NCBI GenBank assembly: GCA_938017985.1
Contig: CALIKS010000007.1
Coordinates: 28,694-52,693, forward strand
Reading direction: 5' to 3'
Length of the DNA: 24,000 nucleotides
DNA from: an uncultured archaeon
GTDB taxonomy: Archaea; Thermoproteota; Nitrososphaeria_A; Caldarchaeales; Calditenuaceae
The notes beneath the pieces were generated by a model. It was not told where the DNA came from. It saw only the letters and a program-made list of their open reading frames with translations, and did no database searches. Shown here piece by piece: positions 245 to 21,129 of this stretch. Made by a program: the position numbers and the translations under genes. Within the stretch, counting starts at the first letter, position 1. The number at the start of each line of letters is the position of its first letter.

Positions 245-1012
245 TCAATGAATAATGTTTGCTTTTTTTAATGCATTTTGTAAGGCCTCTGCAAAAGTTG
301 TTTTAGTCAGTTCTTTTGGATTTATTTCTGATATGTATGCAACTCGCTTATCATAAGGTATGTAGCCTAAAAATGGAACGTTTAATTCTCTTGCCAAATT
401 ATAAGTACCTCCAAAATCATTATCCAATACCATATTCTCAATCAATCCTATTATTTTGACGTTCATGTCAATGAAGAAGATTGCTGCTCGTTTCACAACC
501 TGTTGGGCTAATCTTGATGGTGTAGAAACCAGTATTACTCCTCTATTATTCTTGATATAATTTATTGCCGCCAATGACTCATCCCCAGTACCTGGCGGAA
601 GGTCAATTATTAGATAATCAAGAGTCCCAAAGTCTGTAATTGCTAATAATTCTTTAATGATCTCTCTTTTTGCCATCCCACTGAGTGGTAATGGTGAGTC
701 CTTCGCAAAAAACCCTATAGACATTACTTTTAAATTATTTATGGACGGTGGTACCAGTCCGTTTTTCTCTTCTTTCGGCAATTGTTTGATATCTAAAATC
801 ATTAAAGATGAAGGACCATGCATATCAAGATCCAAAAGCCCGACTCTAAATGAGTTGCCGGTAAGTATCAGTCCCATTGTAGTAGCTATCAGGCTTTTAC
901 CTACACCTCCTTTCCCACTACCCACGAAGATTGTAAATGAAATATTTCTTAGTCTTTTCCAAATAAGGAACTCTCTATAATCAATTTTATCTTGGTTGTA
1001 ACTCAATATCAA
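245..1012 (-). CDS. Mrp/MinD-family P-loop ATPase, a candidate ATPase-type HypB (nickel-insertion partner of HypA)
   Basis: It has the deviant Walker A GSGKGGVGKS and the DLPPGTGD Walker B region. The protein contains no cysteine, so it lacks the CxxC of ApbC/Nbp35 Fe-S carriers. It lies immediately downstream of hypA and overlaps it. The first codon at 1012 is TTG. A GGTGA Shine-Dalgarno (1013-1017) fits better with the in-frame TTG at 1006. Confidence 0.75.
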   Translation of the reverse strand: MILSYNQDKIDYREFLIWKRLRNISFTIFVGSGKGGVGKSLIATTMGLILTGNSFRVGLLDLDMHGPSSLMILDIKQLPKEEKNGLVPPSINNLKVMSIGFFAKDSPLPLSGMAKREIIKELLAITDFGTLDYLIIDLPPGTGDESLAAINYIKNNRGVILVSTPSRLAQQVVKRAAIFFIDMNVKIIGLIENMVLDNDFGGTYNLARELNVPFLGYIPYDKRVAYISEINPKELTKTTFAEALQNALKKANIIH

Positions 1013-1394
1013 TCACCTTTACTCCTCTACCACATAATATCTTAAGGTCTCTACTTCCACAAGAAAAGCACTTTACGTAAGATGAGAGCAGTTCAGGAAT
1101 AAAGTGAATCATTTCCCTCTCCTCATCATTTAGTGTTTTTACTAATTCCTTGAATGTATATGACTTTCCGCATGATTCACATTTTACTAATGCTTCTTCA
1201 ATTATCGTTGAGAATTTAGCATTTCTAAGTTCAGTGCCGGACAATAGTTCTTTAACAAGCTCGGCTAAGATATTTTTATCAAACATCGATAATTCACCGA
1301 TAGCTATTTTGAAACTAGTTATCTTGAATCCCTTGACTAAATATACCTCCCTCAATGAATCAACTATTCCTGATGCTACTGTAAACTCATGCAA
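987..1394 (-). CDS. hypA: [NiFe]-hydrogenase nickel-insertion metallochaperone HypA
   Basis: The N-terminal MHEF is the Met-His-Glu Ni site, and the zinc motif is CESCG...x...CFSCG. Length is 135 aa. The start codon is TTG (reverse complement of caa at 1392-1394). Confidence 0.9.
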   Translation of the reverse strand: MHEFTVASGIVDSLREVYLVKGFKITSFKIAIGELSMFDKNILAELVKELLSGTELRNAKFSTIIEEALVKCESCGKSYTFKELVKTLNDEEREMIHFIPELLSSYVKCFSCGSRDLKILCGRGVKVIDIELQPR

Positions 1395-3803: not shown

Positions 3804-5148
3804 ACCCGTATTAGTAATCGGTGGCGGAATCAGCGGAATTCAAGCCACAATAGACCTCGCCAAGCATGGAGTTGAGGTGTATTTAGTCGAAAGAAATCCA
3901 AGCATTGGTGGAAAGATGGCACAGCTCGATAAAACGTTTCCCACGCTTGATTGTGCGTCATGCATCTTAACACCCAAGATGGCGGAAGTTCTGAGATATA
4001 ATAACATTAAGTTATTGACCTATTCAGAAGTGCAAGAAGTAAAAGGAAATGTAGGAGACTTTACTGTAAAGATTTTGAGGAAACCACGTTATGTTGATTG
4101 GGACAAATGCACTGGATGTGGAACCTGCACGGAGAGATGTCCAGTTAAGGTTCCGGACGAGTATAATGTAAAACTTGGACAAAGAAAAGCTATTTACATC
4201 GAGTATCCGCAAGCCGTGCCGCGTAAAGCCCTAATTGACTATTCGCATTGTCTAAGGCTTAATCCGCCGCCAGATTTAAAAGAAAAAGCAAAAGGAAAGC
4301 CGCTTTGCGGAGCTTGTGAAAAAGTCTGTCCAACTAAAGCAATTGATTATAATCAACAACCAGAAATCATTGAACTCAACGTAGCTGCTATAATATTGGC
4401 TACTGGATTAGAACTTTATGACGCTAGCAATATACCTGAATACGGATATGGAAAATATCAAAACGTCTATACCAATCTAGAATTTGAGAGAATAGTGTCA
4501 TCAACAGGGCCCACCAATGGAAATATAATTAGGAGGTCTGATGGAAAACCACCAAAGAGGATAGCTTGGATACAATGCGTAGGTTCAAGAGACGTCAGAT
4601 TTAATCATTATTGCTCCGCATTTTGTTGCATGGCGGCGACTAAACAAGCGATCCTAGCAAAGGAACTCTTGCCCGAAGTGGATACAACCATTTATTATAT
4701 GGATATGAGGGCATTCGGAAAGGGATTTTATGAATTTTATAAAAGAGCTATGACAGAGTTTGGTGTAAAATATGTTAGAGGAAAAGTAGTAAAAATAACT
4801 GAAAGACAAGACAATAAAAATCTATTACTATTTTATGAAGACACAATTCACAGCTATATGAAAAAAGATGAATTTGACATGGTGGTCTTATCCGTAGCGG
4901 TTAGACCAAATAGAATTACTGCGGCTCCCGTAAAGACGGATAAGGGGGGCTTTATTCAAATTATGGATCCTTACATGGATACCGTTACATCTACTACTGA
5001 GGGAATATTCGTAATTGGTGGTGCTGCAGAGGCTAGGGATATTCCCGACTCTGTGACTATGGCTAGCTCGGCGGCAATAAAAGCATCTACAATTGCTAAA
5101 AAATGTGTAGTAGAGCAAACCATCATCACTTCTGGTGAACGAGCATGA
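3787..5148 (+). CDS. HdrA-family flavoprotein, short form (QmoA-like): FAD domain plus inserted ferredoxin domain
   Basis: Motifs present are VIGGGISGIQATIDLA, PSIGGKMAQLDKTFPTLDCASC, CTGCGTCTERCP, CGACEKVCP and CVGSRD...YCSAFCC. It lacks both the HdrA N-terminal domain and the C-terminal ferredoxin domain. The start may instead be TTG at 3796, which has GGGGTGA 5 nt upstream. Confidence 0.8.
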   Translation: MKYLSKPVLVIGGGISGIQATIDLAKHGVEVYLVERNPSIGGKMAQLDKTFPTLDCASCILTPKMAEVLRYNNIKLLTYSEVQEVKGNVGDFTVKILRKPRYVDWDKCTGCGTCTERCPVKVPDEYNVKLGQRKAIYIEYPQAVPRKALIDYSHCLRLNPPPDLKEKAKGKPLCGACEKVCPTKAIDYNQQPEIIELNVAAIILATGLELYDASNIPEYGYGKYQNVYTNLEFERIVSSTGPTNGNIIRRSDGKPPKRIAWIQCVGSRDVRFNHYCSAFCCMAATKQAILAKELLPEVDTTIYYMDMRAFGKGFYEFYKRAMTEFGVKYVRGKVVKITERQDNKNLLLFYEDTIHSYMKKDEFDMVVLSVAVRPNRITAAPVKTDKGGFIQIMDPYMDTVTSTTEGIFVIGGAAEARDIPDSVTMASSAAIKASTIAKKCVVEQTIITSGERA

Positions 5149-7091
5149 TTCAAGAACCTAGAGTGGGAGTGTTTATCTGTCACTGCGGCCATAACATCGC
5201 TGCTAAAGTGGATGTAAAACAAGTTGCTGACTATGCAAAAACTCTCCCAAACGTGATTGTAAGCCACCACTATGTATTCATGTGCTCAACGGTTGGTCAA
5301 GAATTGATAAGAGAAGAAATAAAAAAACATAATTTAAATAGAGTTGTCGTTGCTGCCTGTTCGCCATCGATGCATGAGCCTACATTTAGAACCGCAATAG
5401 AAAGTGCCGGACTAAATAAGTACCTACTTGAAATGGCAAATATTAGGGAGCATTGTTCGTGGGCTCATTCAGACAAAGAGGCAGCCACTGAGAAGGCCAA
5501 GGATTTGGTCAGGATGGCTGTTGCAAAGGCTAGTCTCCTAGAACCACTAGAGGAAGAAGAATTTCCGGTAAGTCCGACTGTCTTGGTTTTAGGCGGAGGA
5601 GTGGCAGGGATGAGGGCCGCGATCGACTTGGCGGAGTGGGGATTCAACGTATACTTAGTCGAGAAAAACCCTACTCTGGGTGGTAGGGCAGCACTAACTG
5701 GTTGGCTGACTAATAATAGGAGAGGCGCCGATGTCGTAAATAATTTAATCAATAAAATTGTAGATAATAAGAATATTCATGTATTTACGAACGCTGAGCT
5801 GGTAGAGTTTAGTGGTTTTCCAGGCAATTTTAAGGCAAAGATAAAAGTAAATCCTAGATTTGTAAACGAAAAGTGTATTTTATGTGGTGAATGTGAGATC
5901 GAATGCCCGATTGAAGTGTCAAACGAGTATCAATATGGATTGTCGAGAAGGAAGGCAATCTTTTTCCCCTTCAAGGCAGCTTATCCACCGATATATGTCA
6001 TAGATCAACGAGTATGCATTAAATGCGGAGAATGCGTTAAAGCTTGCCAGTATGGGGCCATTAATTTGGCTGAGCAGTCTTTAACGCTGGATTTAAATGT
6101 AGGGGCGATAGTTATTGCCACCGGTTATGATCCATACCATCCGCCAAAGGGAGAGTATGCGTATGGTCTGCACAATAACATAATAACTTTATTCCAGCTG
6201 GAAAGACTCTTAGACGAGGATGGACCAACTCAAGGTAAATTAATTATAGGGGGAGCAGTACCTAAAAGAATTGCCTTTATTCTCTGTGTAGGGTCAAGAA
6301 ATACTACTCCAAGTTCTAAAAATTACTGTTCAAGAATGTGCTGTACTTCTACTTTGATAAATGCAATTAAAATAAAAGAAAAATACCCCGATATAGACGT
6401 TTATGTTCTTTATCAGGATATTAATACTTATGGAAACGATGAAACCCTTTATGAACAGGCAGGCGAAAAACTGGTTAAGTTTATTAAGTTTGAGAAGCCT
6501 CCAACTGTGGACATCAGCCCTGAAGGCATAGTCATAGATGTCTATGAAACCACTATACAAGAGGAGATTAGCATTCCAGTTGACGCCCTTGTTTTATCCG
6601 TAGGTATGGTACCTAGACGAGACCAAAACGAACTAATCGCTACTACGAGGGCTAGTTGCGGAGAAGACGGGTTTATTAGAGAAGTACATCTAAAACTGAA
6701 TCCTGTAGAGGCACCAACTCACGGCATATTTCTCGCAGGAGCCGTGACTGGCCCTAAAAATATAATAGAGAGCATCAGGGCCGGAAGCGCGGCCGCCTCT
6801 AAAGTTGCGACTTTACTATCAGAAGGGAAGGTTAGAACTGAGCCCTTTACCGCAAATGTTAATGAAGAGAGATGCAGTGGCTGCAGAATCTGTGTTGGAC
6901 TATGTCCATATAAAGCCATCTCTCTTCGAGAAATTAATGACAGAATGGTGGCTTACGTTGAGAGGGCATTATGCATGGGTTGTGGTACTTGTTCAGCTGC
7001 TTGTCCATCAGGTGCTATGCAGCAGTATGGCTTTAAAGATATTCAGATCATGGCTCAGGTAGTAGCAGCAACTGGAGGTGGAATTAAGTGA
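5145..7091 (+). CDS. hdrA: HdrA-family flavoprotein, full-length form (HdrA/QmoB-like without a fused MvhD domain)
   Basis: The N-terminal HdrA domain is VGVFICHCGHNIA...VVVAACSPSMHEPTFR, followed by GGGVAGMRAAIDLA. The inserted ferredoxin carries CILCGECEIECP / CIKCGECVKACQ, and CVGSRN...YCSRMCC is present. The C-terminal ferredoxin carries CSGCRICVGLCP / CMGCGTCSAACP. There is an ATGA overlap with the upstream gene. Confidence 0.85.
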   Translation: MIQEPRVGVFICHCGHNIAAKVDVKQVADYAKTLPNVIVSHHYVFMCSTVGQELIREEIKKHNLNRVVVAACSPSMHEPTFRTAIESAGLNKYLLEMANIREHCSWAHSDKEAATEKAKDLVRMAVAKASLLEPLEEEEFPVSPTVLVLGGGVAGMRAAIDLAEWGFNVYLVEKNPTLGGRAALTGWLTNNRRGADVVNNLINKIVDNKNIHVFTNAELVEFSGFPGNFKAKIKVNPRFVNEKCILCGECEIECPIEVSNEYQYGLSRRKAIFFPFKAAYPPIYVIDQRVCIKCGECVKACQYGAINLAEQSLTLDLNVGAIVIATGYDPYHPPKGEYAYGLHNNIITLFQLERLLDEDGPTQGKLIIGGAVPKRIAFILCVGSRNTTPSSKNYCSRMCCTSTLINAIKIKEKYPDIDVYVLYQDINTYGNDETLYEQAGEKLVKFIKFEKPPTVDISPEGIVIDVYETTIQEEISIPVDALVLSVGMVPRRDQNELIATTRASCGEDGFIREVHLKLNPVEAPTHGIFLAGAVTGPKNIIESIRAGSAAASKVATLLSEGKVRTEPFTANVNEERCSGCRICVGLCPYKAISLREINDRMVAYVERALCMGCGTCSAACPSGAMQQYGFKDIQIMAQVVAATGGGIK

Positions 7092-7516
7092 GTACAAATA
7101 ATTACGAGCCTAGAATTGTCGTGTTTGCTTGTAATTGGTGTTCATATGCCGCCATAGACTTGGCTGGAACAAGTAGAAAACTGTATCCCCCTAACGTTAG
7201 GGTCATTAGAGTTATGTGTTCTGGACGTGTAGATCCACAGTTTGTTTTAGAAGCATTTAAGAATGGGGCTGACGGCGTAATTGTTGCAGGATGTCGCCCC
7301 CCATCAGACTGTCACTACATTAATGGAAACATAAAGGCACTCCGAAGATTTACTCTCTTCAAGAGGCTTTTAGAAGAGTTAGGAATAGAAAAAGAAAGAT
7401 TTAGACTTGAGTGGATCTCGGCTGCTGAGGCTGATAAATGGGTCAGAGTAGTTAATGAAATGCTTGAAGAATTAAGAAGGTTAGGCCCATTGAAGGCGGA
7501 GGCAGTTAGTGTATGA
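7088..7516 (+). CDS. mvhD: MvhD, the methyl-viologen-reducing hydrogenase delta subunit ([2Fe-2S] adaptor to HdrA)
   Basis: Motifs IVVFACNWCSYAAIDLAG, VMCSGRVDP and GADGVIVAGCRPPSDCHY are present in a 142-aa protein. The start is a GTGA overlap, with GGAGGTG 7 nt upstream. Confidence 0.9.
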   Translation: MSTNNYEPRIVVFACNWCSYAAIDLAGTSRKLYPPNVRVIRVMCSGRVDPQFVLEAFKNGADGVIVAGCRPPSDCHYINGNIKALRRFTLFKRLLEELGIEKERFRLEWISAAEADKWVRVVNEMLEELRRLGPLKAEAVSV

Positions 7517-8499
7517 ATAATCGCCCTAAAGTTGCATTTTATTGGTGTGCAAGCTGTGGTGGATGTGAAGAAGCAGTGGTAGATTTAGCCGAAAAAATAA
7601 TTGATGTAGTAAGCCTAGTCGATATTGTATTCTGGCCAGTCGCAATGGACTATAAACTAAGCGATGTGGAGGCTCTGCCTGACAATTCAATAACAGTGAG
7701 CTTCATTAACGGAGGAATTAGATTGTCCGAGCATGAAAAAGTTGTAAGACTCCTCAGACAGAAATCAAAGCTAGTAGTAGCATATGGAGCATGTGCATGC
7801 TGGGGCGGCATCCCGGGACTAGCTAATCAATATTCGCGTGAAGAGATACTAGAAAGAGTCTATCTTACTACTCCAACTACTGCAAATCCCGAGAAAATCA
7901 TGCCTCCGCAAGATGGCTACGCTAAATTAGGTGACGTTAAGATTGAGGTGCCGACATTTCTGCCTGAGCTTAAGCCACTCGATGAAGTAATCGATGTGGA
8001 TTACTATATTCCTGGATGCCCGCCTACCCCAGAAGTGACTTGGAACGCAATAAATGTATTACTATCAGGAAAGCTACCAGATAAAGGCACAGTAATAGGG
8101 GCAAGCAACCGATCCCTATGCGATGAGTGTCCTCTAAATAAAACGAAACCCGAAAATGTACTTATAAAAGAATTCAAAAGAGTTGTTAACTATTCTCCAA
8201 GGGCAGATACTTGTCTTCTAGCCCAAGGATTACCGTGTTTAGGACCGGTTACTCGTGGAGGCTGCGGAGCCTTATGCGTAAAGGCGAATATGCCTTGCAC
8301 TGGATGTTTCGGGCCTCTTGAAAATATTCACGACTATGGAGGAAAAGCGTTATCATTTCTAGCAAGCATACTTGATTATGAAAACGAAGAAGAAATAAAG
8401 AGGGAAATCTCAAAGCTTCCAGATGTTTCTGGATTAATTTATAAATACACACTTCCAAAATCTTTATTAAAAAATCTTCTACGGAGTGTTAGAAAATGA
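7513..8499 (+). CDS. mvhG: [NiFe] hydrogenase small subunit, MvhG-type (group 3)
   Basis: The N-terminus is FYWCASCGGCEEAVVDL. Further Cys clusters are ACACWGG, GCPP, LCDECP and CLGPVTRGGCGALCVKANMPCTGCFGP. There is an ATGA overlap with mvhD. Confidence 0.9.
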   Translation: MNNRPKVAFYWCASCGGCEEAVVDLAEKIIDVVSLVDIVFWPVAMDYKLSDVEALPDNSITVSFINGGIRLSEHEKVVRLLRQKSKLVVAYGACACWGGIPGLANQYSREEILERVYLTTPTTANPEKIMPPQDGYAKLGDVKIEVPTFLPELKPLDEVIDVDYYIPGCPPTPEVTWNAINVLLSGKLPDKGTVIGASNRSLCDECPLNKTKPENVLIKEFKRVVNYSPRADTCLLAQGLPCLGPVTRGGCGALCVKANMPCTGCFGPLENIHDYGGKALSFLASILDYENEEEIKREISKLPDVSGLIYKYTLPKSLLKNLLRSVRK

Positions 8500-9956
8500 A
8501 GGAAATAATAATCGATCCTATAACTAGACTTGAGGGACATGGCAAAATAATCATAGTCATGAATGATGAGGGGAACGTGGAACGCGCATATCTTCACATT
8601 CCAGAGCTCAGAGGATTTGAAAAGTTTGCTGAGGGAAGAGCTGTCGAGGATATGCCTCAAATAACCTCGAGAATCTGCGGTGTATGTCCAATGGCACACC
8701 ATATGGCCTCGACAAAAACCCTTGACGACCTTTACAAATGTAAGCCCACAATAACAGCGAGAAAGATCAGGGAATTAATGTATAACATATTCATGCTCGA
8801 AGATCATGCATTACATGTATATTTACTCGGCGGACCTGACTTCATAGTAGGGCCAACATCCTCAAAAGAAGAAAGAAACATAATTGGAATAATCAATAAA
8901 GTAGGCAAAGAGAATGTCTTGAAAGTAATTTCAATGCGTAAAAAGCTACGTGAAATAAATTTGATGCTTGGTGGAAAAACTATACATCCGGTTTCAGGCG
9001 TACCAGGGGGCGTATCCAGGCCAATTAATTCTGATGAGCTGGAAAAAATTAAGCAAGTTGCAAATGAGTCTATCGAGTTCGCTAGATTTACCCTAAAGCT
9101 ATTTAAAGACATAGTACTAAGTAACGACCAGTACCTAAATCTAATTACAAGTGAAGCATACACTCATCGAACATATTACATGGGACTCGTAGACGAAAAG
9201 AACCGTCTCAACTTCTATGATGGAAAAATCCGAGTAGTGGATCCGAGAGGTAATGAATATGCTAAATTCGATGTACATCAATACGCTGAATACATTGCTG
9301 AGCATGTCGAGCCATGGACTTATATTAAGTTTCCATTCCTAAAAAATTTTGGATGGAAAGGATTCGTTGACGGTGAGGATAGTGGAATTTATAGCGTAGC
9401 ACCACTAGCAAGACTTAACGTCTCCGATTCTTTACCAACACATGAGGCACAAACAGCGTTTGAAGAAATGATATCGATGCTAGGAAAACCCATTCATCAC
9501 ACGTTAGCAAATCATTGGGCCAGAGTCGTCGAGATGATTTATTCAGCTGAAAGAATTCAAGAATTAGTAAACGATCCAGACATACTTGACTCGAATATTA
9601 GAAATATTCCAACCAGTGTTCCAAGCGAAGGTATGGGGGTAGTTGAGGCACCGAGAGGCACGCTCATCCACCACTATATAACAGATGAGAGGGGAGTGGT
9701 AAAACAAGCAAATCTAATAGTAGCTACACAGAATAACGCTGCTAGAATCGCGTTATCAATAGATAAAGCAGCTAAGCACTTGATTCGTCAAGGCCAAGTA
9801 AATGAAGGCTTACTAAATATGGTCGAAATGGCGTTCAGAGCATACGACCCATGCCATGCATGCGGCACACATACACTGCCAGGTAATATGCCATTCGCAA
9901 TGTACATTTATGACACGAATGGAAAACTACTTAACATAGTCAAGCATAATTTATAA
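8496..9956 (+). CDS. mvhA: [NiFe] hydrogenase large subunit, MvhA-type (group 3c-like)
   Basis: RLEGHGKI is present. The L1 motif is RICGVCPMAHH and the L2 motif is DPCHACGTH. L2 is followed by a 27-aa C-terminal extension, the expected protease substrate. Confidence 0.92.
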   Translation: MKEIIIDPITRLEGHGKIIIVMNDEGNVERAYLHIPELRGFEKFAEGRAVEDMPQITSRICGVCPMAHHMASTKTLDDLYKCKPTITARKIRELMYNIFMLEDHALHVYLLGGPDFIVGPTSSKEERNIIGIINKVGKENVLKVISMRKKLREINLMLGGKTIHPVSGVPGGVSRPINSDELEKIKQVANESIEFARFTLKLFKDIVLSNDQYLNLITSEAYTHRTYYMGLVDEKNRLNFYDGKIRVVDPRGNEYAKFDVHQYAEYIAEHVEPWTYIKFPFLKNFGWKGFVDGEDSGIYSVAPLARLNVSDSLPTHEAQTAFEEMISMLGKPIHHTLANHWARVVEMIYSAERIQELVNDPDILDSNIRNIPTSVPSEGMGVVEAPRGTLIHHYITDERGVVKQANLIVATQNNAARIALSIDKAAKHLIRQGQVNEGLLNMVEMAFRAYDPCHACGTHTLPGNMPFAMYIYDTNGKLLNIVKHNL

Positions 9957-9962
9957 TCAGCC

Positions 9963-10448
9963 GTGAAAATTACTGTTCTTTTCCTAGGTAATCCGATTTT
10001 TAGCGATGACGCAATAGGCATAGAGGTTGGGAGGCGACTAATCAATGATTTAAAAAAAATAGGAATTGACGTGTATATTTTGGAAAGAACAGGACTCTCG
10101 TTAATAGATTACATAGTGGGATATGATTTAGTCATTATTGTCGATAGTTTTAAAATCAATCAACGACCTCCAGGAGAAGTAACTTTAAGTAACTTTTTAC
10201 ATTTTTCACTGCCTATTTTTTCTCCCCACTACGCCGGAGTATCAGAAGCATTAATGGTTAGTCAAGCATTAGGCATTAGGAATAATTCAATCTACGTAAT
10301 TGCTATAGAGGTTTACGATCCATATACATTAGGCGAGGGGCTTTCAAGAGAAATTGCTGACAAAATCGAAAAAATCACGAGCGATGTCTACGGTCTGATA
10401 ATGAATATAATTAATAGAGTTGTTGATAAGAAATGCAATCAAGAATAA
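9963..10448 (+). CDS. Hydrogenase maturation endopeptidase (HycI/HybD/FrhD family)
   Basis: The sequence begins VLFLGNPIFSDDAIGIEVG, matching the GNxxxxDDxxG motif. IIVDS and SPHYAG supply the Asp/His metal ligands. It is 161 aa, has a GTG start, and lies immediately after the large subunit. Confidence 0.8.
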   Translation: MKITVLFLGNPIFSDDAIGIEVGRRLINDLKKIGIDVYILERTGLSLIDYIVGYDLVIIVDSFKINQRPPGEVTLSNFLHFSLPIFSPHYAGVSEALMVSQALGIRNNSIYVIAIEVYDPYTLGEGLSREIADKIEKITSDVYGLIMNIINRVVDKKCNQE

Positions 10449-11656
10449 ATAATATCCATAATGTGTTTAGAGATAACCGAGAGATTGTTTCTCCACTAAT
10501 TAGTTTAATAAAAAAATACGCTGAAAAGATCATGAGTGAACAGTTGGGTAGTAGGACAGTTATTAAGATAATGCATTTCTGCGGTACACATGAATGGACA
10601 ATAACTCATTATGGTTTAAGGAGCATATTGCCATCAAACATTGAACTTGTAGCCGGTCCAGGCTGCCCAATATGTGTCGTCCCTTCCTACTACATTGATC
10701 TTTCAATCAGACTTTCATTGGAAGGATATACAATTTATACGTATGGTGATGCGCTTCGACTTCCATCTACAAGACTAAAAACATCTGCAAGATCACTACT
10801 CGAGGCGAAAGCAATGGGAGCAGACGTTAGGGTCGTATATTCTTTCTTGGATGCTGTAAAAGAAGCAGGAACGTCAGGGAAGGACAGCATCTTTCTTGGA
10901 ATTGGCTTCGAGACGATACTACCAGTATATGGTTCTCTTTTTCAGAGAAGAGTGGTGCCGGAAAACCTTAAGTTTCTGAGTCTTGTTCGGCTCACTCCTC
11001 CTGCAATGAAGTTCACCATAAAGCTGTATAGAGAAAGAGGTTTATTACCACTAATGGGAATCATAGCGCCTGGACATGTATCAGCAATTATAGGCGGAGA
11101 AGAGTGGCGATTTTTACCTGAGGTATTTGGACTACCAGTGGTAGTTGCTGGATTTGAACCTGTTGATGTCTTGCTATCTATTGCATTGCTCTTAAAAATG
11201 ATTTATAATAATAAGCCTAGGCTTGAAATCGAGTATAAAAGATTGGTCAAACCGAGTGGGGATGTGCATGTCAAGAATATGATTAGGGAAGTTTTCCAGC
11301 CAGTATATGCTGCGTGGAGAGGAATTGGAATGATACCTAGAAGTGGGATGAGGCTACGGCCAGAGTTTAGAAAGCTTTACGATGCCCTTGAATATTTCGG
11401 CATTCCAGACATCTCTCCGACCGAGTATGTCTTGACACATGCTCATTACGGAGAGCCGGGAAAATATGACATACCTCCCAACTGCAGGTGTGGTGAAGTA
11501 GTACTCGGTATTTCTAAGCCTACTGATTGTCCGTTATTTATGAAATCATGTACACCAGAATCTCCTTGGGGGCCATGCATGGTCTCGACGGAAGGGCCTT
11601 GTAACATATGGGCAAAGTATGGCGGATATAGAGAATACCTAATCAATGAGAGGTGA
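10433..11656 (+). CDS. hypD: Hydrogenase maturation protein HypD
   Basis: Motifs FCGTHEW, GPGCPICV, GFETI, APGHVSAIIG and C-terminal Cys motifs (CRCG, CPLF...C...C...C) are present. Confidence 0.92.
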   Translation: MQSRINNIHNVFRDNREIVSPLISLIKKYAEKIMSEQLGSRTVIKIMHFCGTHEWTITHYGLRSILPSNIELVAGPGCPICVVPSYYIDLSIRLSLEGYTIYTYGDALRLPSTRLKTSARSLLEAKAMGADVRVVYSFLDAVKEAGTSGKDSIFLGIGFETILPVYGSLFQRRVVPENLKFLSLVRLTPPAMKFTIKLYRERGLLPLMGIIAPGHVSAIIGGEEWRFLPEVFGLPVVVAGFEPVDVLLSIALLLKMIYNNKPRLEIEYKRLVKPSGDVHVKNMIREVFQPVYAAWRGIGMIPRSGMRLRPEFRKLYDALEYFGIPDISPTEYVLTHAHYGEPGKYDIPPNCRCGEVVLGISKPTDCPLFMKSCTPESPWGPCMVSTEGPCNIWAKYGGYREYLINER

Positions 11657-11661
11657 TGAGA

Positions 11662-12486
11662 ATGTGTTGGGGCACGCCTGGAAAAATATTAGAAATAAAC
11701 GATAGTGATAAAATAGCGAAGGTTGATTTTGGTGGCATTATTAGGGAAGCAATCATTGGAATAGAGGATGTGAACGTAGGGGATTACGTCATGGTTCACG
11801 CTGGCGTAGTTATTGGCAAAATGAATCCAGTAGATGTTGCGTTAAACCTGATGATATATACAGAGCTGGCTGAGACTAATTATACAGAAATGGGACTTAG
11901 CAGTGAAGAAGCAAAGACAAGGGCGAGAAAAGATCTGGAAAATATGTTAGCAAAACTAGGGATTGATCCAGTCATTATCGATAATTTGAATAATAATGAA
12001 GAAAAAGATGATGAGGAAATTCAAGTTGAACAGAAAAACCAATTAGAAATTCCTGAGACTGCATTTAGAAAAACTTACAAGATATCTCTATCAGATACTG
12101 ATTACTTACAAGTTATGCACTATACAAATTACTTTAAGTTTTGTGAAAGATGTCAACAAGAATTATTATCTAGTGTGGGTTTTGGATACTCAGTACTTAT
12201 CCACAAGTATGGATGCTTCATTCCCACAGTTGAGACCGGTGGAAAGATACTTGCACCAGTAAGGCTAGACAATGAAATTGAAGTAATTGTATGGGTTGAA
12301 GATATAGGGAAAAAACACGTAAGGTTCCGAAACTTGATCTTGAATAAGACAACTGGAAAACTGGCCGCAGACATATACACAATAGGCGTATGTACTGATA
12401 CCTCCATAACAGAGTCAACCGAGCTCCCTGAAGAATTCGCCAAAGCTCTTGAGCCATTTATCTTCAAGAATGAAAGAGGTGATTGA
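11662..12486 (+). CDS. hypC: HypC hydrogenase chaperone fused to a C-terminal 4HBT/YbgC-type hotdog acyl-CoA thioesterase domain
   Basis: The HypC part is MCWGTPGKILEI...VDFGG...VGDYVMVHAGVVI. An acidic low-complexity linker follows (NNLNNNEEKDDEEIQVEQKNQ). The hotdog domain from about 12061 reads SLSDTDYLQVMHYTNYFKF...APVRLDNEIEVIVWVEDIGKKHVRFRN, collinear with E. coli YbgC. I place the start at ATG 11662 so that Cys is residue 2. GAGGTGA lies at 11649-11655. Confidence 0.85.
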   Translation: MCWGTPGKILEINDSDKIAKVDFGGIIREAIIGIEDVNVGDYVMVHAGVVIGKMNPVDVALNLMIYTELAETNYTEMGLSSEEAKTRARKDLENMLAKLGIDPVIIDNLNNNEEKDDEEIQVEQKNQLEIPETAFRKTYKISLSDTDYLQVMHYTNYFKFCERCQQELLSSVGFGYSVLIHKYGCFIPTVETGGKILAPVRLDNEIEVIVWVEDIGKKHVRFRNLILNKTTGKLAADIYTIGVCTDTSITESTELPEEFAKALEPFIFKNERGD

Positions 12487-12488
12487 TA

Positions 12489-13544
12489 ATGAATAACGTC
12501 ACAATGCTTCACGGCGCGGGCGGAAAATACATGTTACAATTCATTCGCCAGTATGTTTTAAAGTATTTTGGCGATTTAGGCAGAAATATAGATGTCCCAC
12601 TATATCTTTTAGAAGATTCAGCGATTATTAACGGCATAGCTTTTACTACAGACTCGTACACTGTATACCCATTATTCTTTCCCGGAGGGGATATCGGTAG
12701 AATGGCAGTTTGTGGCACTGTTAATGACCTTGCCGTTAAAGGAGCGACAAAGATACTAGGGATCTCATGCGGCCTTATAATAGAGGAAGGAGTTGAACTT
12801 GCTATGATTGAACAAATATTGAACAGTATGAGAACTGCTTCAATTGAAGCTGAAACATCAATAATCACAGGAGATACGAAGGTAGTGGAAAGAGGACGCG
12901 TCGACAAATTATTAATAAACTGCTCAGGAATAGGAGCCCCCGAAAAAGAGCTGTTTCATAATTATGAAGTAATTAGAAGGAGTCGTGGAGATTCCTCATC
13001 TATGTGGCTGATTAATAAGAATATTCGTCCAGGTGACAGATTGATTCTGAATGGGCCAATCGGCGACCATGCAGTAGCTATCTTATCTGCTAGAGGAGAA
13101 CTTGGCATTAAATCAGAAGTAAAATCAGACGTTGCCCCACTGAACAAACTAATGCGAGAAGCATTAAAGACCGGTGGCATCACTTGTGCCAAAGATCCTA
13201 CAAGGGGAGGCATGGCTGGCCTTCTAAATGAGTGGGCGGAGAGCACAGGACTTGGATTTATTCTTCATGAGGAGGCAATACCTATAAGTCCCGCGGCAAA
13301 AGCGGCCTCTGAATTATTAGGAATTGATATGCTAGAGGTTGGGAATGAGGGGAAAGTCGTCATGTGTGTAGTTAATGAAAAGGCAGAAGAGGTACTGGCT
13401 TCGATTAAAAAAAATGGGTGGAGACATGCAAGTCTAATTGGGTATGTCACTGATTCCTTTAAAGGCGTAGTCTTAGAAACATCGATAGGTGGTAAAAGAA
13501 TAATTCCACCACCAGTTGGAGACCCAGTACCTAGGATATGTTAG
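12489..13544 (+). CDS. hypE: Hydrogenase maturation protein HypE (carbamoyl dehydratase)
   Basis: The N-terminus is MLHGAGGKYM, with an AIR-synthase-like body and the canonical C-terminal PRIC. I prefer ATG at 12489 (GAGGTGA at 12475-12481) over the ORF-track TTG at 12483. Confidence 0.92.
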   Translation: MNNVTMLHGAGGKYMLQFIRQYVLKYFGDLGRNIDVPLYLLEDSAIINGIAFTTDSYTVYPLFFPGGDIGRMAVCGTVNDLAVKGATKILGISCGLIIEEGVELAMIEQILNSMRTASIEAETSIITGDTKVVERGRVDKLLINCSGIGAPEKELFHNYEVIRRSRGDSSSMWLINKNIRPGDRLILNGPIGDHAVAILSARGELGIKSEVKSDVAPLNKLMREALKTGGITCAKDPTRGGMAGLLNEWAESTGLGFILHEEAIPISPAAKAASELLGIDMLEVGNEGKVVMCVVNEKAEEVLASIKKNGWRHASLIGYVTDSFKGVVLETSIGGKRIIPPPVGDPVPRIC

Positions 13545-15841
13545 GAGCCGTCAAGTTAATAATTTCAGGAATCGTTCAAGGTGTAGGTTTCAGACCAGCT
13601 ATTGCCAGAATATGCCATAAAATGGGTATCAATGGATACGTAAAAAATCTTGGTGGAGGAGAAGTCGAAATATGGATTGAGGGAGAGCCAGAAAAAGTCC
13701 AGTATTTTCTAAAAACTTTGAAGGAAAATGTTCCGCCCACGTCTAAGATTGAAAAAATCATAGTTGAGGAGAAAAAACCACTTAATATTAAAGGCTTTAC
13801 AATACTTAGAAGTGCCCATGAGTCATTTTTGATATCAGAGATTCCACCGGACATAGCGATTTGTAATTGGTGCCTAAATGAAATTAATAGTAAAGAATCT
13901 CGAAGATACAACTATGCTTTTAATGCATGTGCTTGGTGTGGTCCAAGATACTCAATCATTGAGCGATTACCATATGATAGAGAAAACACGAGTTGGATAG
14001 ACTTCCCATTATGTCACTCTTGCATAGAAGAATACAATGATCCGGAAAACATTAGGCGATTTCACGCCGAGGGGAATAGTTGCCCGATTTGCGGTCCGAA
14101 ACTAAGTTTACTAAATAACAATTTAGAAGTTTTAGATGTCGCTGACCCACTACTTGAAGCGTCGAAGCTAATCGATGAGGGGTATATCGTCGCTATTAAA
14201 GGAATTGGTGGCTATCATTTAGCCGCCCTTGCAACTAATGATGATGTAGTGTCGAAACTCCGGTTAAGAAAACAACGTCTAAGGCAACCATTTGCTATAA
14301 TGGCATTAGATATTGAGATTGCGAGAGGCCTCGTAGTCATAGACAATAAAGCTGAAAAGCTTTTGACAAGCTATGAGAGACCAATCGTCATTTTGCAGAA
14401 GACTGAAAACTCAAACGTCTCCTCACTAGTAGCCCCTGGACTAAACACCATAGGGATATACTTGCCATATACAGGTATCCACTATATTCTATTAAAGAAT
14501 ACTAAAGATAAATTTGCAATAATGACTAGTGGCAATCCTACTGGTCAACCAATGATTACCAGTGAAGAGCAGCTAAAAAGACTAAATAAAATCGCTGATT
14601 TCTTTCTTATTCATAACAGACGAATCATTAATAGGATAGATGATTCTGTTGTTAGATTTACTAACGGAGAGGTACAATTATTAAGGAGAGCGAGGGGATA
14701 TGCTCCCACATGGATTGAGACCTCTGTTAGGTTCAATAGACCAGTCATTGCGTTTGGCTCTGACTTACATAACGTTGGAGCAATAGGTGTAGAAAACAAA
14801 ATAATACCTACTCAGTACATAGGCGACGTTGACGAGTATGAAAGTTTCAAAGACCTTGAAACGTATTTATACAGATTATGCCAATATTACAAGATTAATC
14901 CAAGAGAAGCAATATTAGTAGCAGATCTACATCCTCTATATAGGTCATTACTTCTTGCTGAAAAATGGTGCAATGCTTATGATGCAGAATTGATCAGAGT
15001 TCAACATCATAAAGCACACATGGCCTCAGTCATGCTTGACAATAGTCACACTATTGATGAGCCTGCTGTAGCAATAACTGTTGATGGTGCGGGATACGGC
15101 GAAGATAATGCGATTTGGGGAGGAGAAATACTCAGTTGGGATGGAAATAAAATTCATCGTTGTGCACATCTGGAATATCACGTCATGCCGGGAGGAGATC
15201 TAGCAACAAAGTATCCTGCAAGAATGCTTGCATCAATTCTAGGAAAAATACTTAGTGAAGAGGAAGTTTTTAGCATTTTCGAAAAGAGAAGACTACTTGA
15301 ATACTTGCCAATAGGCATAGAAGAACTTCATTACTGCGTAATGTCCGCAAAAAATGGTAGGGGACAATTAACCTCCAGTACTGGCCGGGTTTTAGATAGC
15401 ATATCAGTACTCCTGAGGCTATGCAAAGAACGCAGTTATGAGGGAGAGCCGGCAATTTTGCTTGAAGACTACGCGGCTCACGGAAAAGAAGTCGAAGTAG
15501 CAATCCCAGACATAAAAGATAAAATTATACCAACCTCAGACATAATTTTACAAATAGTCAACCTAGCAGATACCTTAAATGGTCACGACATCGCCTATAC
15601 AGCATTACTAACAATAGGCAAACTTTTAGGAGAAGTCGCAAAGGAAGAAGCACTCAAATATGATTTAGACAAGATCTACATTAGCGGCGGAGCCGCAGTA
15701 AATGAGTATATTATTCGAGGTATCGAGTCTGCAATCAAAAATAGTGGAGTAATGCTTAAGATGCATAAAAAGTTGCCTCCAAATGATGGTTGTATTTCTG
15801 CGGGCCAAGTCTTCATAACTAAAATGTTAGGATTACTTTAG
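13538..15841 (+). CDS. hypF: Hydrogenase maturation carbamoyltransferase HypF
   Basis: The acylphosphatase domain is GIVQGVGFRP...GYVKN. Two zinc-finger pairs are present (CNWC...CAWCGPRYSI; CHSC...CPICGPKL). The YrdC motif is IKGIGGYHLA, followed by a Kae1-like C-terminus. Length is 767 aa. Confidence 0.92.
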   Translation: MLGAVKLIISGIVQGVGFRPAIARICHKMGINGYVKNLGGGEVEIWIEGEPEKVQYFLKTLKENVPPTSKIEKIIVEEKKPLNIKGFTILRSAHESFLISEIPPDIAICNWCLNEINSKESRRYNYAFNACAWCGPRYSIIERLPYDRENTSWIDFPLCHSCIEEYNDPENIRRFHAEGNSCPICGPKLSLLNNNLEVLDVADPLLEASKLIDEGYIVAIKGIGGYHLAALATNDDVVSKLRLRKQRLRQPFAIMALDIEIARGLVVIDNKAEKLLTSYERPIVILQKTENSNVSSLVAPGLNTIGIYLPYTGIHYILLKNTKDKFAIMTSGNPTGQPMITSEEQLKRLNKIADFFLIHNRRIINRIDDSVVRFTNGEVQLLRRARGYAPTWIETSVRFNRPVIAFGSDLHNVGAIGVENKIIPTQYIGDVDEYESFKDLETYLYRLCQYYKINPREAILVADLHPLYRSLLLAEKWCNAYDAELIRVQHHKAHMASVMLDNSHTIDEPAVAITVDGAGYGEDNAIWGGEILSWDGNKIHRCAHLEYHVMPGGDLATKYPARMLASILGKILSEEEVFSIFEKRRLLEYLPIGIEELHYCVMSAKNGRGQLTSSTGRVLDSISVLLRLCKERSYEGEPAILLEDYAAHGKEVEVAIPDIKDKIIPTSDIILQIVNLADTLNGHDIAYTALLTIGKLLGEVAKEEALKYDLDKIYISGGAAVNEYIIRGIESAIKNSGVMLKMHKKLPPNDGCISAGQVFITKMLGLL

Positions 15842-18622: not shown

Positions 18623-20194
18623 TTAGCCGATGGGCAATTTTCTCCGGTAAAAATCGTCTGATAATTTTCTTCCAGTTTTCTTCTCCCATTCTTCTATGGG
18701 TATTCCAAATTGTGCTTGAAGTCTATCTCTATACCATTCCGGTAGGACGTTAAAGGCACAGAACGGAATAATTCTCATATCTGGAGTTAAGTAATGTATC
18801 TCGCATCTCCACACTCTCTCTACATCATAGTTATACTTGTCTTGAAAGTGCATCATTCCTAGGAAGAGACTTCGTCTATGCCAATCTCCCACACTTCTAT
18901 AATCATGCTTAACGATTATGTTAAAGATCATTTGTTTAAGATTAAGTCCTTGAGGCTCCTTCTTTCTATTAATGAACTTGTCGAGGTTTGCAAGAACTTT
19001 CATTGCAACCCAATACTTATTTCTTCCCCTATGTATCTCCTCTGTCTTATCTTGGAGATAGTTTATTAACCCTTCAACATCGACAAATTCTGTAATCGGC
19101 TTAATCCTATCTCCGTCCTTAAAAACGTATGTTCCAGCACCACATGCAAAATGTGTGCTAAGCATATACTTGGGCTTACCTGTCAATGCTTCAATGAAAT
19201 CTGTTAGTGGTACACAAGAGGGCACTGGGAACCAAGCATCTCTAGAAATCATTCCATCAGTCTGTTCCTCAATCTTAATGATACAGTCCGGAATCGTGAT
19301 TCTATACTTTTCTCGCTCTTTCTTAGGCATCCTACCAGTAAGAGACACGGGCTGAAAGTTAACTGCACGTATAATATCAATATTTGCAAATCCAAATCTA
19401 ATTATCTCGCCTAATTCATGGTCATTAATGCCTCTTATTATGGTTGGAACAAGTACGACCCCTACCCCTAGCTTACGAGCATTATCAAGAATTGCCGGGA
19501 CCTCCCAGTGATTCTTTGGGTTAGTTCTAGGCGTGACCCCGTCAAAACTCATGTAAAGATTACTAATACCTGCTTCTTTCAGTTTCTTGAAATAATCAAA
19601 GTCTCTAGCAAGACGTATTCCATTAGTATTCAGCTGAATGTGATCAATTCCAACGTCCTTAATAGTTCTGACAATTTCTGGAAGATCATCCCTAAGCGTG
19701 GGTTCGCCTCCAGTTATCTGTACTGAATTTCCAGGGATTGGTCTCTCCGCCCTGAGGTTTAGAACCATATCCTTGATCTGCTCAAGCGTAGGCTCATAGA
19801 CGTATCCAGCCTTTTCAGCATAAAAGAAGCAATACCAACAATGCAAGTCACAGCGATTGGTAACAACGATGTTAGCGAGTGCTGTATGACTGAGATGTTC
19901 ACTACAAAGGCCACAGTTTGCTGGACAAACAACTTTAGGTACCAGGACGTTCGGATTTCCTGTTCCTTTCCCGTCTCTTTGCCACTTGGCAAACTTATAG
20001 TACAAAGAAGCATCGCCGAAGTATAGCTCCTCTACTTCGCCGTGCTTAGGACAAGTCTTTTTAATGTATATTTTATTATTCATTTCAAATATTTCGGCTG
20101 GTAAAATGGCATTACATTCTGGACAAATACTCATAGTTTTACTTATTAACTTCTTGACACGTTTTTCTTCTAATATTTCTGCTGTAGTTGTCAT
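18623..20194 (-). CDS. Radical SAM enzyme of the COG1964 type, a probable tetraether lipid synthase (Tes / GDGT-MAS family)
   Basis: The N-terminal CPEC...CPKHG is a rubredoxin/zinc-ribbon-like element. A CPANCGLC motif is followed by the radical SAM CDLHCWYC and GGEPTL. The C-terminus carries MHFQDKYNYDVERVWRCEIHY...IPFCAFN. The family assignment is from memory of the family pattern, not from an alignment. Confidence 0.55.
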   Translation of the reverse strand: MTTTAEILEEKRVKKLISKTMSICPECNAILPAEIFEMNNKIYIKKTCPKHGEVEELYFGDASLYYKFAKWQRDGKGTGNPNVLVPKVVCPANCGLCSEHLSHTALANIVVTNRCDLHCWYCFFYAEKAGYVYEPTLEQIKDMVLNLRAERPIPGNSVQITGGEPTLRDDLPEIVRTIKDVGIDHIQLNTNGIRLARDFDYFKKLKEAGISNLYMSFDGVTPRTNPKNHWEVPAILDNARKLGVGVVLVPTIIRGINDHELGEIIRFGFANIDIIRAVNFQPVSLTGRMPKKEREKYRITIPDCIIKIEEQTDGMISRDAWFPVPSCVPLTDFIEALTGKPKYMLSTHFACGAGTYVFKDGDRIKPITEFVDVEGLINYLQDKTEEIHRGRNKYWVAMKVLANLDKFINRKKEPQGLNLKQMIFNIIVKHDYRSVGDWHRRSLFLGMMHFQDKYNYDVERVWRCEIHYLTPDMRIIPFCAFNVLPEWYRDRLQAQFGIPIEEWEKKTGRKLSDDFYRRKLPIG

Positions 20195-20313: not shown

Positions 20314-21129
20314 TTGAGACCAATAATACTATTCTCCAAAGCAGACGTAGCCTCGATGTTGACTAGGCAGGTATTGCTTGAGAGCTTCAATTGGCGTGAA
20401 TTATACATCGAAAAGAATGGTGAGGCAGTAATAAGTGACGGAACTATAATCGGCTTGACAACGAGAAAACACCACATTTACTTGAAAGATGAGGAAATAA
20501 AAGGTCTCGGTGGCGATTTAATAATCGTAGCTTCCAGTCATAGGTCTGAAAAGGGCATAAAGAGCCTTCACGCTCATTCTACTGGCAACTGGGGTGCAGA
20601 GGTAAAGCTCGGTGGAGAGCCAAATAAACTTTCGTATACAATGGCTGGCGCATTAAGCGTAGGTTTTAGAAAACTCTCAGAAGCAGCTTCTGAAGAAGAC
20701 AGACTAAAAGACTGGCTAGTCAGCCTAGAAGTTACGCATCATGGGCCTTACTCATCAGTTCCCTTAATATTTATTGAGTTCGGAGGACCTCAATCGGCAC
20801 TTCTTATTCGTGAAGCAGCAATAGTTGTAGCAGAAGCTTGCATCGCTGCCGCCAATGCCCATCTTTCCAATAAACCCGCGGTAGGTATAGGTGGAGGACA
20901 TTATGCACCACTATTCACAACGCTTACACTTCAAGGAGAATATGATTTTGGACATATAGTGCCAAAATATGCATTTCCAATATCTGATGAATTATTACTT
21001 GAGGCATTCGATAAGACTGTTGAGAAGACCAAATTAGCAATAATTGATTGGAAAGGAACACCGGGCACTTATAGACAACTCATAATTAATGTTCTAAAAA
21101 ATCAAGGAATAGAAGTAGTAAAAAAGTAG
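20314..21129 (+). CDS. dtdA: D-aminoacyl-tRNA deacylase, archaeal DTD2 type
   Basis: Motifs SHRSEKG...HSTGNWG, EVTHHGP, GIGGGHYAP, FGHIVPKYA and IDWKG are collinear with Pyrococcus DtdA as I recall it. The start codon is TTG. Confidence 0.85.
   Translation: MRPIILFSKADVASMLTRQVLLESFNWRELYIEKNGEAVISDGTIIGLTTRKHHIYLKDEEIKGLGGDLIIVASSHRSEKGIKSLHAHSTGNWGAEVKLGGEPNKLSYTMAGALSVGFRKLSEAASEEDRLKDWLVSLEVTHHGPYSSVPLIFIEFGGPQSALLIREAAIVVAEACIAAANAHLSNKPAVGIGGGHYAPLFTTLTLQGEYDFGHIVPKYAFPISDELLLEAFDKTVEKTKLAIIDWKGTPGTYRQLIINVLKNQGIEVVKK

Follow-up and report, generated by a model that had tools for sequence, protein, structure and literature searches.

A HypC chaperone fused to a YbgC-type hotdog thioesterase in an archaeal [NiFe]-hydrogenase maturation operon

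Why should the gene for a small hydrogenase maturation chaperone carry a thioesterase? The question is raised by a stretch of 24,000 nucleotides from an uncultured archaeon of the Calditenuaceae (contig CALIKS010000007.1, positions 28,694 to 52,693; hereafter the window), in which the gene between hypD and hypE encodes a single protein with a HypC chaperone at its N terminus and a hotdog thioesterase of the YbgC/4HBT type at its C terminus. The N-terminal Cys of HypC is essential, and the chaperone works at the scaffold on which the iron of [NiFe]-hydrogenases receives its CN and CO ligands. Where the CO ligand comes from under anoxic conditions was listed among three key unanswered questions in a 2025 review, and no CO-specific mutant is known. 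HypX, which serves the aerobic route, makes CO via enzyme-bound formyl-CoA, and formyl-CoA has been proposed as the anoxic precursor, as have acyl adducts carried by HypC on its N-terminal Cys. An earlier note on this DNA, made from the letters alone, had named the same gap concerning anaerobic CO and the same formyl-CoA route of HypX, with which the literature agrees.

The open reading frame (ORF) of the fusion is uninterrupted from the ATG at 11662 to a TGA at 12484-12486, giving 274 codons and a stop; the single frame had been recognized in the earlier note, whose figure of 275 amino acids counted the stop codon. The placement of the gene between hypD and hypE was also correct. An in-frame GTG lies upstream at 11653. 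The ATG at 11662 is judged to be the correct start because ATG-TGT (11662-11667, with the Cys2 codon at 11665-11667) yields a Met-Cys N terminus, a start codon followed by Cys being typical of the relatives. A protein of 100% identity is present in public assemblies, and public naming covers one half at a time, as a HypC chaperone at NCBI and as an acyl-CoA thioester hydrolase at JGI.

The fusion architecture is confirmed and is far beyond chance, because about 60 full-length homologous fusions, 41-70% identical and all with both Pfam domains, were returned by a word-index search (counted as clusters at 90% identity, from NCBI, ENA, JGI and Logan assemblies). When one genome was scanned for each GTDB species, 24 carriers came to light, every one archaeal and metagenome-assembled, which by their record titles are distributed among Nitrososphaerota/Nitrososphaeria (2), Geoarchaeota (1), Hadarchaeota/Hadesarchaea (8), Hodarchaeaceae (1) and Sulfolobales/Desulfurococcales/Thermoproteota (12). 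The nearest relatives of the window fusion are the two Nitrososphaerota/Nitrososphaeria carriers, at ~70% identity, and a scan of JGI metagenomes revealed 23 further fusion loci. The distribution, which the earlier note had proposed to map, is thus that of a fusion conserved in several archaeal lineages. No split pair of hypC and thioesterase genes was found in the 24 genome and 23 metagenome loci, where partial matches all lay at contig ends. One candidate for a stand-alone thioesterase, P0061, was rejected as a fusion truncated where its contig ends, with hypE and hypF following it.

That all of these sequences come from metagenome assemblies, with no isolate genome among the carriers, would suit an artifact in which a frameshift, a missed stop or a chimeric assembly joins two genes, and a hidden stop or frameshift had already been flagged as a concern. 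However, an uninterrupted ORF of 260-276 amino acids, intact in all 24 species, recurs in independent NCBI, ENA, JGI and Logan assemblies at 41-100% identity, and the linker is in frame and of conserved length. The probability left to an artifact is negligible. Both halves of the protein are under purifying selection: Nei-Gojobori ratios of nonsynonymous to synonymous substitution for close pairs are 0.02-0.12 in the thioesterase and 0.02-0.47 in the HypC barrel, with 0.1-1.2 in the tether between them. Conservation is highest in the thioesterase, with a mean pairwise identity of 61% as compared with 52% for the HypC barrel.

The identity of the N-terminal part as HypC, which the earlier note had read from short motifs, is supported by a match of residues 1-60 to the Pfam family HupF_HypC (PF01455; E 1.3e-17, 64.1 bits against a gathering cutoff of 28.5). 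The NCBIfam model TIGR00074 (hypC_hupF) is narrowly missed, with 45.6 against 48 bits as a whole-protein score on the fusion. The barrel aligns with residues 1-57 of HypC from Thermococcus kodakarensis (2Z1C; E 2e-8) and also with 3VYR, and G24, G25 and His46 are invariant in the HypC half of the fusions. A start codon (ATG or GTG) followed by Cys was observed in 23 of the 24 species representatives. The exception, the Desulfurococcales assembly L017, has ACG ahead of the conserved Cys codon (~9998-10003), which could be a non-canonical start, could reflect an upstream start that buries the Cys, or could be a sequencing error.

An AlphaFold2 (AF2) model was obtained from an alignment of 35 sequences, with a mean predicted local distance difference test score (pLDDT) of 84.7. 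It refines the picture of an acidic linker of about 60 residues that the earlier note had drawn: a true acidic tether exists, but it is confined to residues ~103-130, and the remainder consists of a helix (residues 56-76) and a second, conserved helix (residues 81-98). The first is the usual C-terminal helix of HypC, in which N62 is invariant and Y66 nearly so. The second is conserved at G78, A84, A88, L99 and G100, with a mean pairwise identity of 46%, and lies beyond the point at which solved HypC chains in the PDB stop. The tether carries 9 D/E residues as compared with 2 K/R in the window protein. Its identity among the fusions is only 15%, yet its length is kept at 19-28 residues, and D/E exceed K/R in 24 of 25 sequences.

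Like the HypC/HybG/HupF chaperones (2Z1C, 3VYR and Escherichia coli HypC), the fusion has, by sequence and model, the PF01455 domain, a Met-Cys start, an OB-type barrel with its His, the C-terminal helix and hypD and hypE as neighbors in a hypDEF cluster. By contrast, the known members of this family are stand-alone proteins with solved chains of 74-103 amino acids, in line with the small size given in the earlier note, and the fusion adds a helix, a tether and a 140-residue enzyme domain. No description of a HypC-thioesterase fusion was found in a search of full-text literature, although many subscription papers lie outside its coverage and a prior mention is possible; in a 2025 neighborhood survey of [NiFe]-hydrogenase genes, HypC is given only as HupF_HypC. 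The fusion therefore appears to be undescribed so far, and none was known to the earlier note.

For the C-terminal half, Pfam, Foldseek and phmmer agree on the YbgC-type thioesterase that had been proposed. Residues 143-263 match Pfam 4HBT_2 (E 1.9e-10; 41.7 bits against a cutoff of 25.5), and 4HBT is likewise above its gathering score (E 8e-6; 26.5 bits against 20.6). In the AF2 model the hotdog domain spans residues 135-266, and its top Foldseek matches in the PDB are YbgC-type proteins (3CK1, 5V10, 1S5U/5T06, 4K00 and 1Z54), with target-normalized template modeling scores of 0.84-0.90; root mean square deviations from 3CK1, 5V10, 1S5U and 1Z54 are ~2.1-2.7 Å. A phmmer comparison with Pseudomonas aeruginosa YbgC (5V10; E 1.5e-11) places the DTD motif, found exactly where the earlier note had put it, on the EDTD of that protein. 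Asp147 (12100-12102), with which the motif ends, falls in the alignment on the position that PROSITE PS01328 gives as the active-site Asp. This Asp corresponds to Asp17 of the Pseudomonas 4HBT enzyme and Asp18 of E. coli YbgC and has been proposed as the nucleophile in this family. Asp147 is invariant in the fusions (25/25) and present in 127 of 131 stand-alone relatives. In view of this invariant active-site Asp and of the strong purifying selection on the domain, a catalytic function of the thioesterase half is very probable.

The same evidence bears on the suggestion that the hotdog domain is a structural module, which would only oligomerize HypC or dock HypD, HypE or a particular large subunit, with catalysis being irrelevant. 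Members of this class of hotdog thioesterase are obligately dimeric or tetrameric, and HupF shows that non-catalytic roles are possible for C-terminal extensions in the HypC family. A pure scaffold, however, would not need to keep the catalytic Asp and its surrounding motif invariant in all fusions across such divergence, and a purely structural role is considered very improbable.

The domain is assigned to the YbgC/4HBT class I superfamily by its fold and catalytic Asp. It is nevertheless not classed as a YbgC equivalog, because both the curated cutoffs and the PROSITE Gly are missed. Scores against the NCBIfam models for YbgC/FadM (TIGR00051) and tol-pal YbgC (TIGR02799) were 51.5 against 68.7 bits and 44.6 against 141.35 bits, respectively. 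The PROSITE pattern PS01328, [QR]-[IV]-x(4)-[TC]-D-x(2)-G-[IV]-V-x-[HF]-x(2)-[FY], is incompletely matched by the fusion sequence K-I-SLSD-T-D-YL-Q-V-M-H-Y-TN-Y: there is agreement at the active-site Asp and at T, V and Y on its flanks, whereas the fusion has an invariant Gln for Gly, Met for Val, Tyr for [HF] and Lys for [QR]. As in class I enzymes of this group (E. coli 1S5U and 5T06; P. aeruginosa 5V10), there is a hotdog fold with an Asp in D-T-D ahead of the central helix and a VCxD near the C terminus. The fusion thioesterase is, however, only ~22-25% identical to them, is joined to HypC and lacks a tol-pal context.

Beside Asp147 the pocket appears to have been remodeled. Here, the Y-L-Q that follows the Asp in the fusions takes the place of x-x-Gly, the stand-alone relatives having mostly A/Q, M/A/G and G at positions 148-150 (Gly in 96 of 131). 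Invariant Cys161 occupies a column in which the 131 stand-alone relatives have Phe in 65 cases and Cys in 14, and the column of invariant His181 is a gap in 57 of them. Thr189, Asn204 and Thr245 are also specific to the fusion family.

An exhaustive HMMER search with the thioesterase half over 1.84 billion cluster-representative proteins gave scores of 168-181 bits for four fusion clusters, 117 bits for one stand-alone protein (P0062) and less than 85 bits for generic thioesterases. Because of this gap, the fusion thioesterases are placed in a dedicated subfamily that is found almost only in the fusion. A word-index search with the thioesterase alone gave 4 matches, all of them known fusions. 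P0062 is a truly stand-alone relative of 153 amino acids, 39% identical, with in-frame stops upstream; it has a DTDYL motif and lacks His153 and Cys161, both invariant in the fusion family. Its gene (75-536 of locus L030, a 1.2-kb contig) is convergent with a TENA/THI-4 gene, and P0062 contigs are all 1.2 kb or shorter.

What the fused protein does in its operon can be approached through its neighbors. The window has a complete set of hyp genes, with hypD, the fusion, hypE and hypF in that order together with hypA, a HypB-type ATPase and a maturation protease, and a search of all its ORFs of at least 45 amino acids with the HypC half revealed no second HypC. The fusion gene thus probably encodes the working HypC of the operon, as the only HypC in an otherwise complete cluster. 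The stop codon of hypD lies 5 nucleotides ahead of the fusion ATG, and the fusion stop overlaps or abuts the hypE start; this spacing suggests that hypD, the fusion and hypE are translationally coupled. The hydrogenase large subunit encoded upstream, which has RICGVC...H and DPCHACGTH motifs, would be the client of the fusion. In HypD the motifs CGTHE, GPGCP, GFET and PGHVS are all intact, and its comparison with T. kodakarensis HypD revealed small insertions only and no obvious docking element.

The arrangement recurs among the relatives. The fusion stands directly after hypD in 15 of the 24 species, including Hadarchaeota, Hodarchaeaceae, Geoarchaeota and some Desulfurococcaceae, and the clade of the window keeps the whole order mvh-protease-hypD-fusion-hypE-hypF. 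In no locus was a second HypC found within 10 kb of the fusion.

Taken from its sequence, the protein may be regarded as a bifunctional maturation factor, the HypC half of which should act as HypC does; C-terminal tags are tolerated on E. coli HypC. Its N-terminal Cys would, with HypD, hold iron while two CN and one CO attach, and the chaperone would then deliver the Fe unit to the hydrogenase large subunit. By family analogy, dimers or tetramers of the thioesterase would gather two to four HypC-HypD units; class I hotdog thioesterase dimers assemble into tetramers. The tether would confine thioester cleavage to the scaffold, with Asp147 as nucleophile or base. The substrate would be a small acyl or formyl thioester, that is, an acyl-CoA or an S-acyl adduct on Cys1 of HypC or on a Cys of HypD. 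Tethering an enzyme is of use chiefly when its substrate or product is protein-bound or has to be channeled, which suggests that a thioester is present on the scaffold or close to it.

A part for the thioesterase in maturation at the HypC-HypD scaffold is, in this general form, considered probable. The more definite reading, favored tentatively, is that the acyl or formyl thioester handled there may lie, as a precursor or an intermediate, on the way to the CO ligand that is formed in the absence of oxygen, as the earlier note had envisaged among its possibilities. In a bolder form, the thioesterase would itself be the enzyme so far lacking from the anaerobic synthesis of the CO ligand in these archaea, a formyl or other small acyl group passing from CoA through an acyl-anhydride on Asp147 to the N-terminal Cys of its own HypC half, seated on HypD, and thence to iron as Fe-CO; this is considered unlikely. 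Were it true, the anaerobic route to CO would run via a thioester like that of aerobic HypX, and the adducts known from E. coli HypC, formyl and acetyl-like in kind, would be true intermediates.

Several considerations weigh against a part in CO-ligand synthesis. Hydrolysis of formyl-CoA gives formate and not CO, and hydrolysis is what hotdog thioesterases do. The decarbonylase of HypX has a different, crotonase-like fold. HypC from T. kodakarensis has only 75 amino acids and no such domain, and most anaerobes mature their hydrogenases without a thioesterase domain, so that the domain would at best be accessory. In about 10 species of a Sulfolobales clade the fusion has no hyp gene beside it. 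Furthermore, the inter-domain geometry of the AF2 model is not reliable (predicted template modeling score 0.53).

A close rival, which fits the data about equally well, is that the tethered thioesterase serves proofreading or hygiene, stripping stray acyl groups from the very reactive N-terminal Cys of HypC or from Cys residues of HypD or HypE, or destroying nearby acyl-CoA, and so keeping the thiol free for iron. Members of the family are hydrolases by nature, and a tether suits a protein-bound substrate. A model for such a role is the editing hotdog thioesterase EntH (YbdB), which clears mis-acylated carrier-protein thiols, although EntH, itself a separate protein, falls in another hotdog subfamily (PaaI/4HBT class II-like) and has phosphopantetheine thiols as its targets. 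Presence limited to some lineages would suit an optional quality-control add-on, and the names of the carriers suggest a hot-spring or subsurface origin, where non-enzymatic acylation is faster. On the other side, an acyl group on an N-terminal Cys undergoes a fast S-to-N shift, an established reaction, and a thioesterase cannot undo the resulting amide. A domain more conserved than HypC itself, with a remodeled and invariant pocket, is unexpected for a cleaner of broad specificity, and well-studied hyperthermophiles do without it. Proofreading is regarded as a serious but somewhat unlikely explanation.

The adducts on E. coli HypC can be read in either way. Both the +28 Da (formyl) and the +26 Da adducts depend on Cys1, and the authors who described them suggest that the +26 Da species may come from an S- or N-acetyl group lying on the path to CO. 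That species is, however, abundant, independent of HypD and possibly derived from acetyl or acetaldehyde, so that the Cys does gather metabolite adducts. If proofreading were the true function, a new quality-control step in metallocofactor assembly would have come to light, and the E. coli adducts would be reinterpreted as damage.

Two further systems invite comparison. HypX resembles the fusion only in concept, as an accessory enzyme acting on formyl-CoA in the service of HypC-HypD. It is a separate protein with formyl-tetrahydrofolate transferase and crotonase-like decarbonylase domains, and the fusion is not a member of the HypX family: no HypX domain was found by Pfam in the fusion protein, and none was seen among the window genes covered by domain searches. 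HupF of Rhizobium leguminosarum is a HypC homologue whose C-terminal extension adds a condition-specific maturation function. That extension is short, non-enzymatic and tied to oxygen protection, whereas the extension described here is a full domain of catalytic type in archaeal, metagenome-assembled carriers.

The Sulfolobales clade is also where a purely metabolic explanation finds part of its ground. In this account, a generic acyl-CoA thioesterase with no mechanistic tie to maturation became fused through gene adjacency, and its retention serves nothing but co-expression or regulation, such as the sensing or tuning of acyl-CoA pools. YbgC-like domains are joined elsewhere to response-regulator receiver and cytidylate kinase domains, and the Sulfolobales-clade gene lies beside an acyl-CoA-producing 2-oxoacid:ferredoxin oxidoreductase and not beside hyp genes. 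Against this stand the near exclusiveness of the subfamily, with no split form in 47 loci and one distant stand-alone protein among 1.84 billion cluster representatives, and the persistence of the fusion in Nitrososphaerota, Geoarchaeota, Sulfolobales/Desulfurococcales, Hadarchaeota and Hodarchaeaceae, with tether length kept and strong purifying selection on both domains. Both the metabolic and the structural explanations are made less likely by the exclusiveness of the subfamily and the invariance of the active site, and the metabolic one is rated quite unlikely.

The adjacency of the Kor-like oxidoreductase, as a producer of acyl-CoA, was set aside as evidence for an acyl-CoA supply to the fusion, because the arrangements seen are explained by local inversions within a block that related genomes share in synteny. 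The loci concerned are L002 (2085-9872), L015-L019, L021, L022, L025, L028, L038, L039, L041-L044, L047 and L048. The fusion always abuts a block with a ferredoxin, the alpha, beta and gamma subunits of the Kor-like 2-oxoacid:ferredoxin oxidoreductase, IscS and IscU. Three proteins of the block without family matches were read from their sequences as thioredoxin-like (WCPHC), DsbD/CcdA-like and a small membrane protein; a further small protein, also without a family match, was read as TusA-like. The other side has an H+-pyrophosphatase. There are three orientations, in two of which the fusion is co-directional with the block. The other fusions of YbgC-like domains (P0072, P0081, P0118 and P0165), which came from the weaker matches to the thioesterase half, have response-regulator receiver or cytidylate kinase partners, none of them HypC, and point to a domain that is prone to joining unrelated partners.

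To return to the tentatively favored role at the HypC-HypD scaffold, a natural and selected fusion of HypC with a thioesterase would provide independent evidence, of the Rosetta-stone type, for thioester chemistry at that scaffold. It also offers one small protein in which the origin of the CO ligand can be tested. The fusion would surprise a specialist, and it makes a long-standing question about CO directly testable, although the function itself is one that we infer.

Table 1. Features of the fusion gene and its operon in the window (nucleotide positions of the window; residues numbered from Met1 of the fusion)
Feature	Position	Strand	Evidence or remark
hypA and ParA/Mrp-type ATPase	245..1394	-	HypA E 8e-18; ParA/NUBPL E 5e-55
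mvhD, mvhG, mvhA	7088-9956	+	FlpD, Oxidored_q6 and NiFeSe_Hases matches; [NiFe] small and large subunits
Maturation protease	9963-10448	+	HycI match
hypD	10433..11656	+	Pfam HypD E 7e-116; T. kodakarensis HypD 2Z1D E 6e-78
hypC-thioesterase fusion gene	11662..12486	+	274 amino acids and stop; both Pfam domains in one frame
HypC beta-barrel, residues 1-55	11662..11826	+	Pfam PF01455; AF2 strands 5-54, pLDDT ~90
Helix 1, residues 56-77, usual HypC C-terminal helix	11827..11892	+	AF2 helix 56-76; aligns with 3D3R HypC/HupF helix
Helix 2, residues 78-102, extra conserved helix	11893..11967	+	AF2 helix 81-98, pLDDT >90
Flexible acidic tether, residues 103-130	11968..12051	+	pLDDT <50 at residues 113-126
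YbgC/4HBT-class hotdog thioesterase domain, residues 131-274	12052..12483	+	Pfam, Foldseek, phmmer
D145-T146-D147 motif	12094..12102	+	Placed by alignment on EDTD of 5V10 and of YbgC from E. coli
Y148-L149-Q150, replacing usual x-x-Gly after catalytic Asp	12103..12111	+	Invariant in 25/25 fusions
Cys161	12142..12144	+	25/25 fusions
Ile180-His181, invariant family-specific segment	12199..12204	+	Column counts
hypE	12483..13544	+	Pfam AIRS, AIRS_C; PRIC end
hypF	13538..15841	+	Acylphosphatase, zf-HYPF, Sua5/YrdC and HypF_C domains

Some details of the window concern the genes around the fusion (Table 1), which on the plus strand make up a self-contained hydrogenase unit from the Hdr-like genes to hypF. 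The listed start of hypE is a TTG at 12483; the ATG at 12489, which has GAGGTGA ahead of it at a suitable distance, is the likelier start. Downstream of the hyp cluster, a radical SAM protein of 523 amino acids, with a zinc ribbon of the HMPTM type at its N terminus, is encoded at 18623-20194 on the reverse strand, and an archaeal-type D-aminoacyl-tRNA deacylase at 20314-21129, neither of which has an obvious tie to the fusion. Upstream of the mvh genes, the plus strand at 1513-7091 encodes a pair of HdrB/C-like paralogs with ferredoxin domains (387 and 376 amino acids) and two HdrA-like flavoproteins (453 and 648 amino acids). A canonical hdrABC is absent from this region, and the gene order is identical in the two nearest relatives (L005 and L006).

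The hypA/ATPase pair is divergent from the hydrogenase operon, and an equivalent pair is present in the Hadarchaeota locus L004 (17073-18210). The ParA/NUBPL (Mrp/MinD-type) ATPase presumably replaces the GTPase-type HypB, as in some archaea, and ATP is used by some archaeal HypB homologues.

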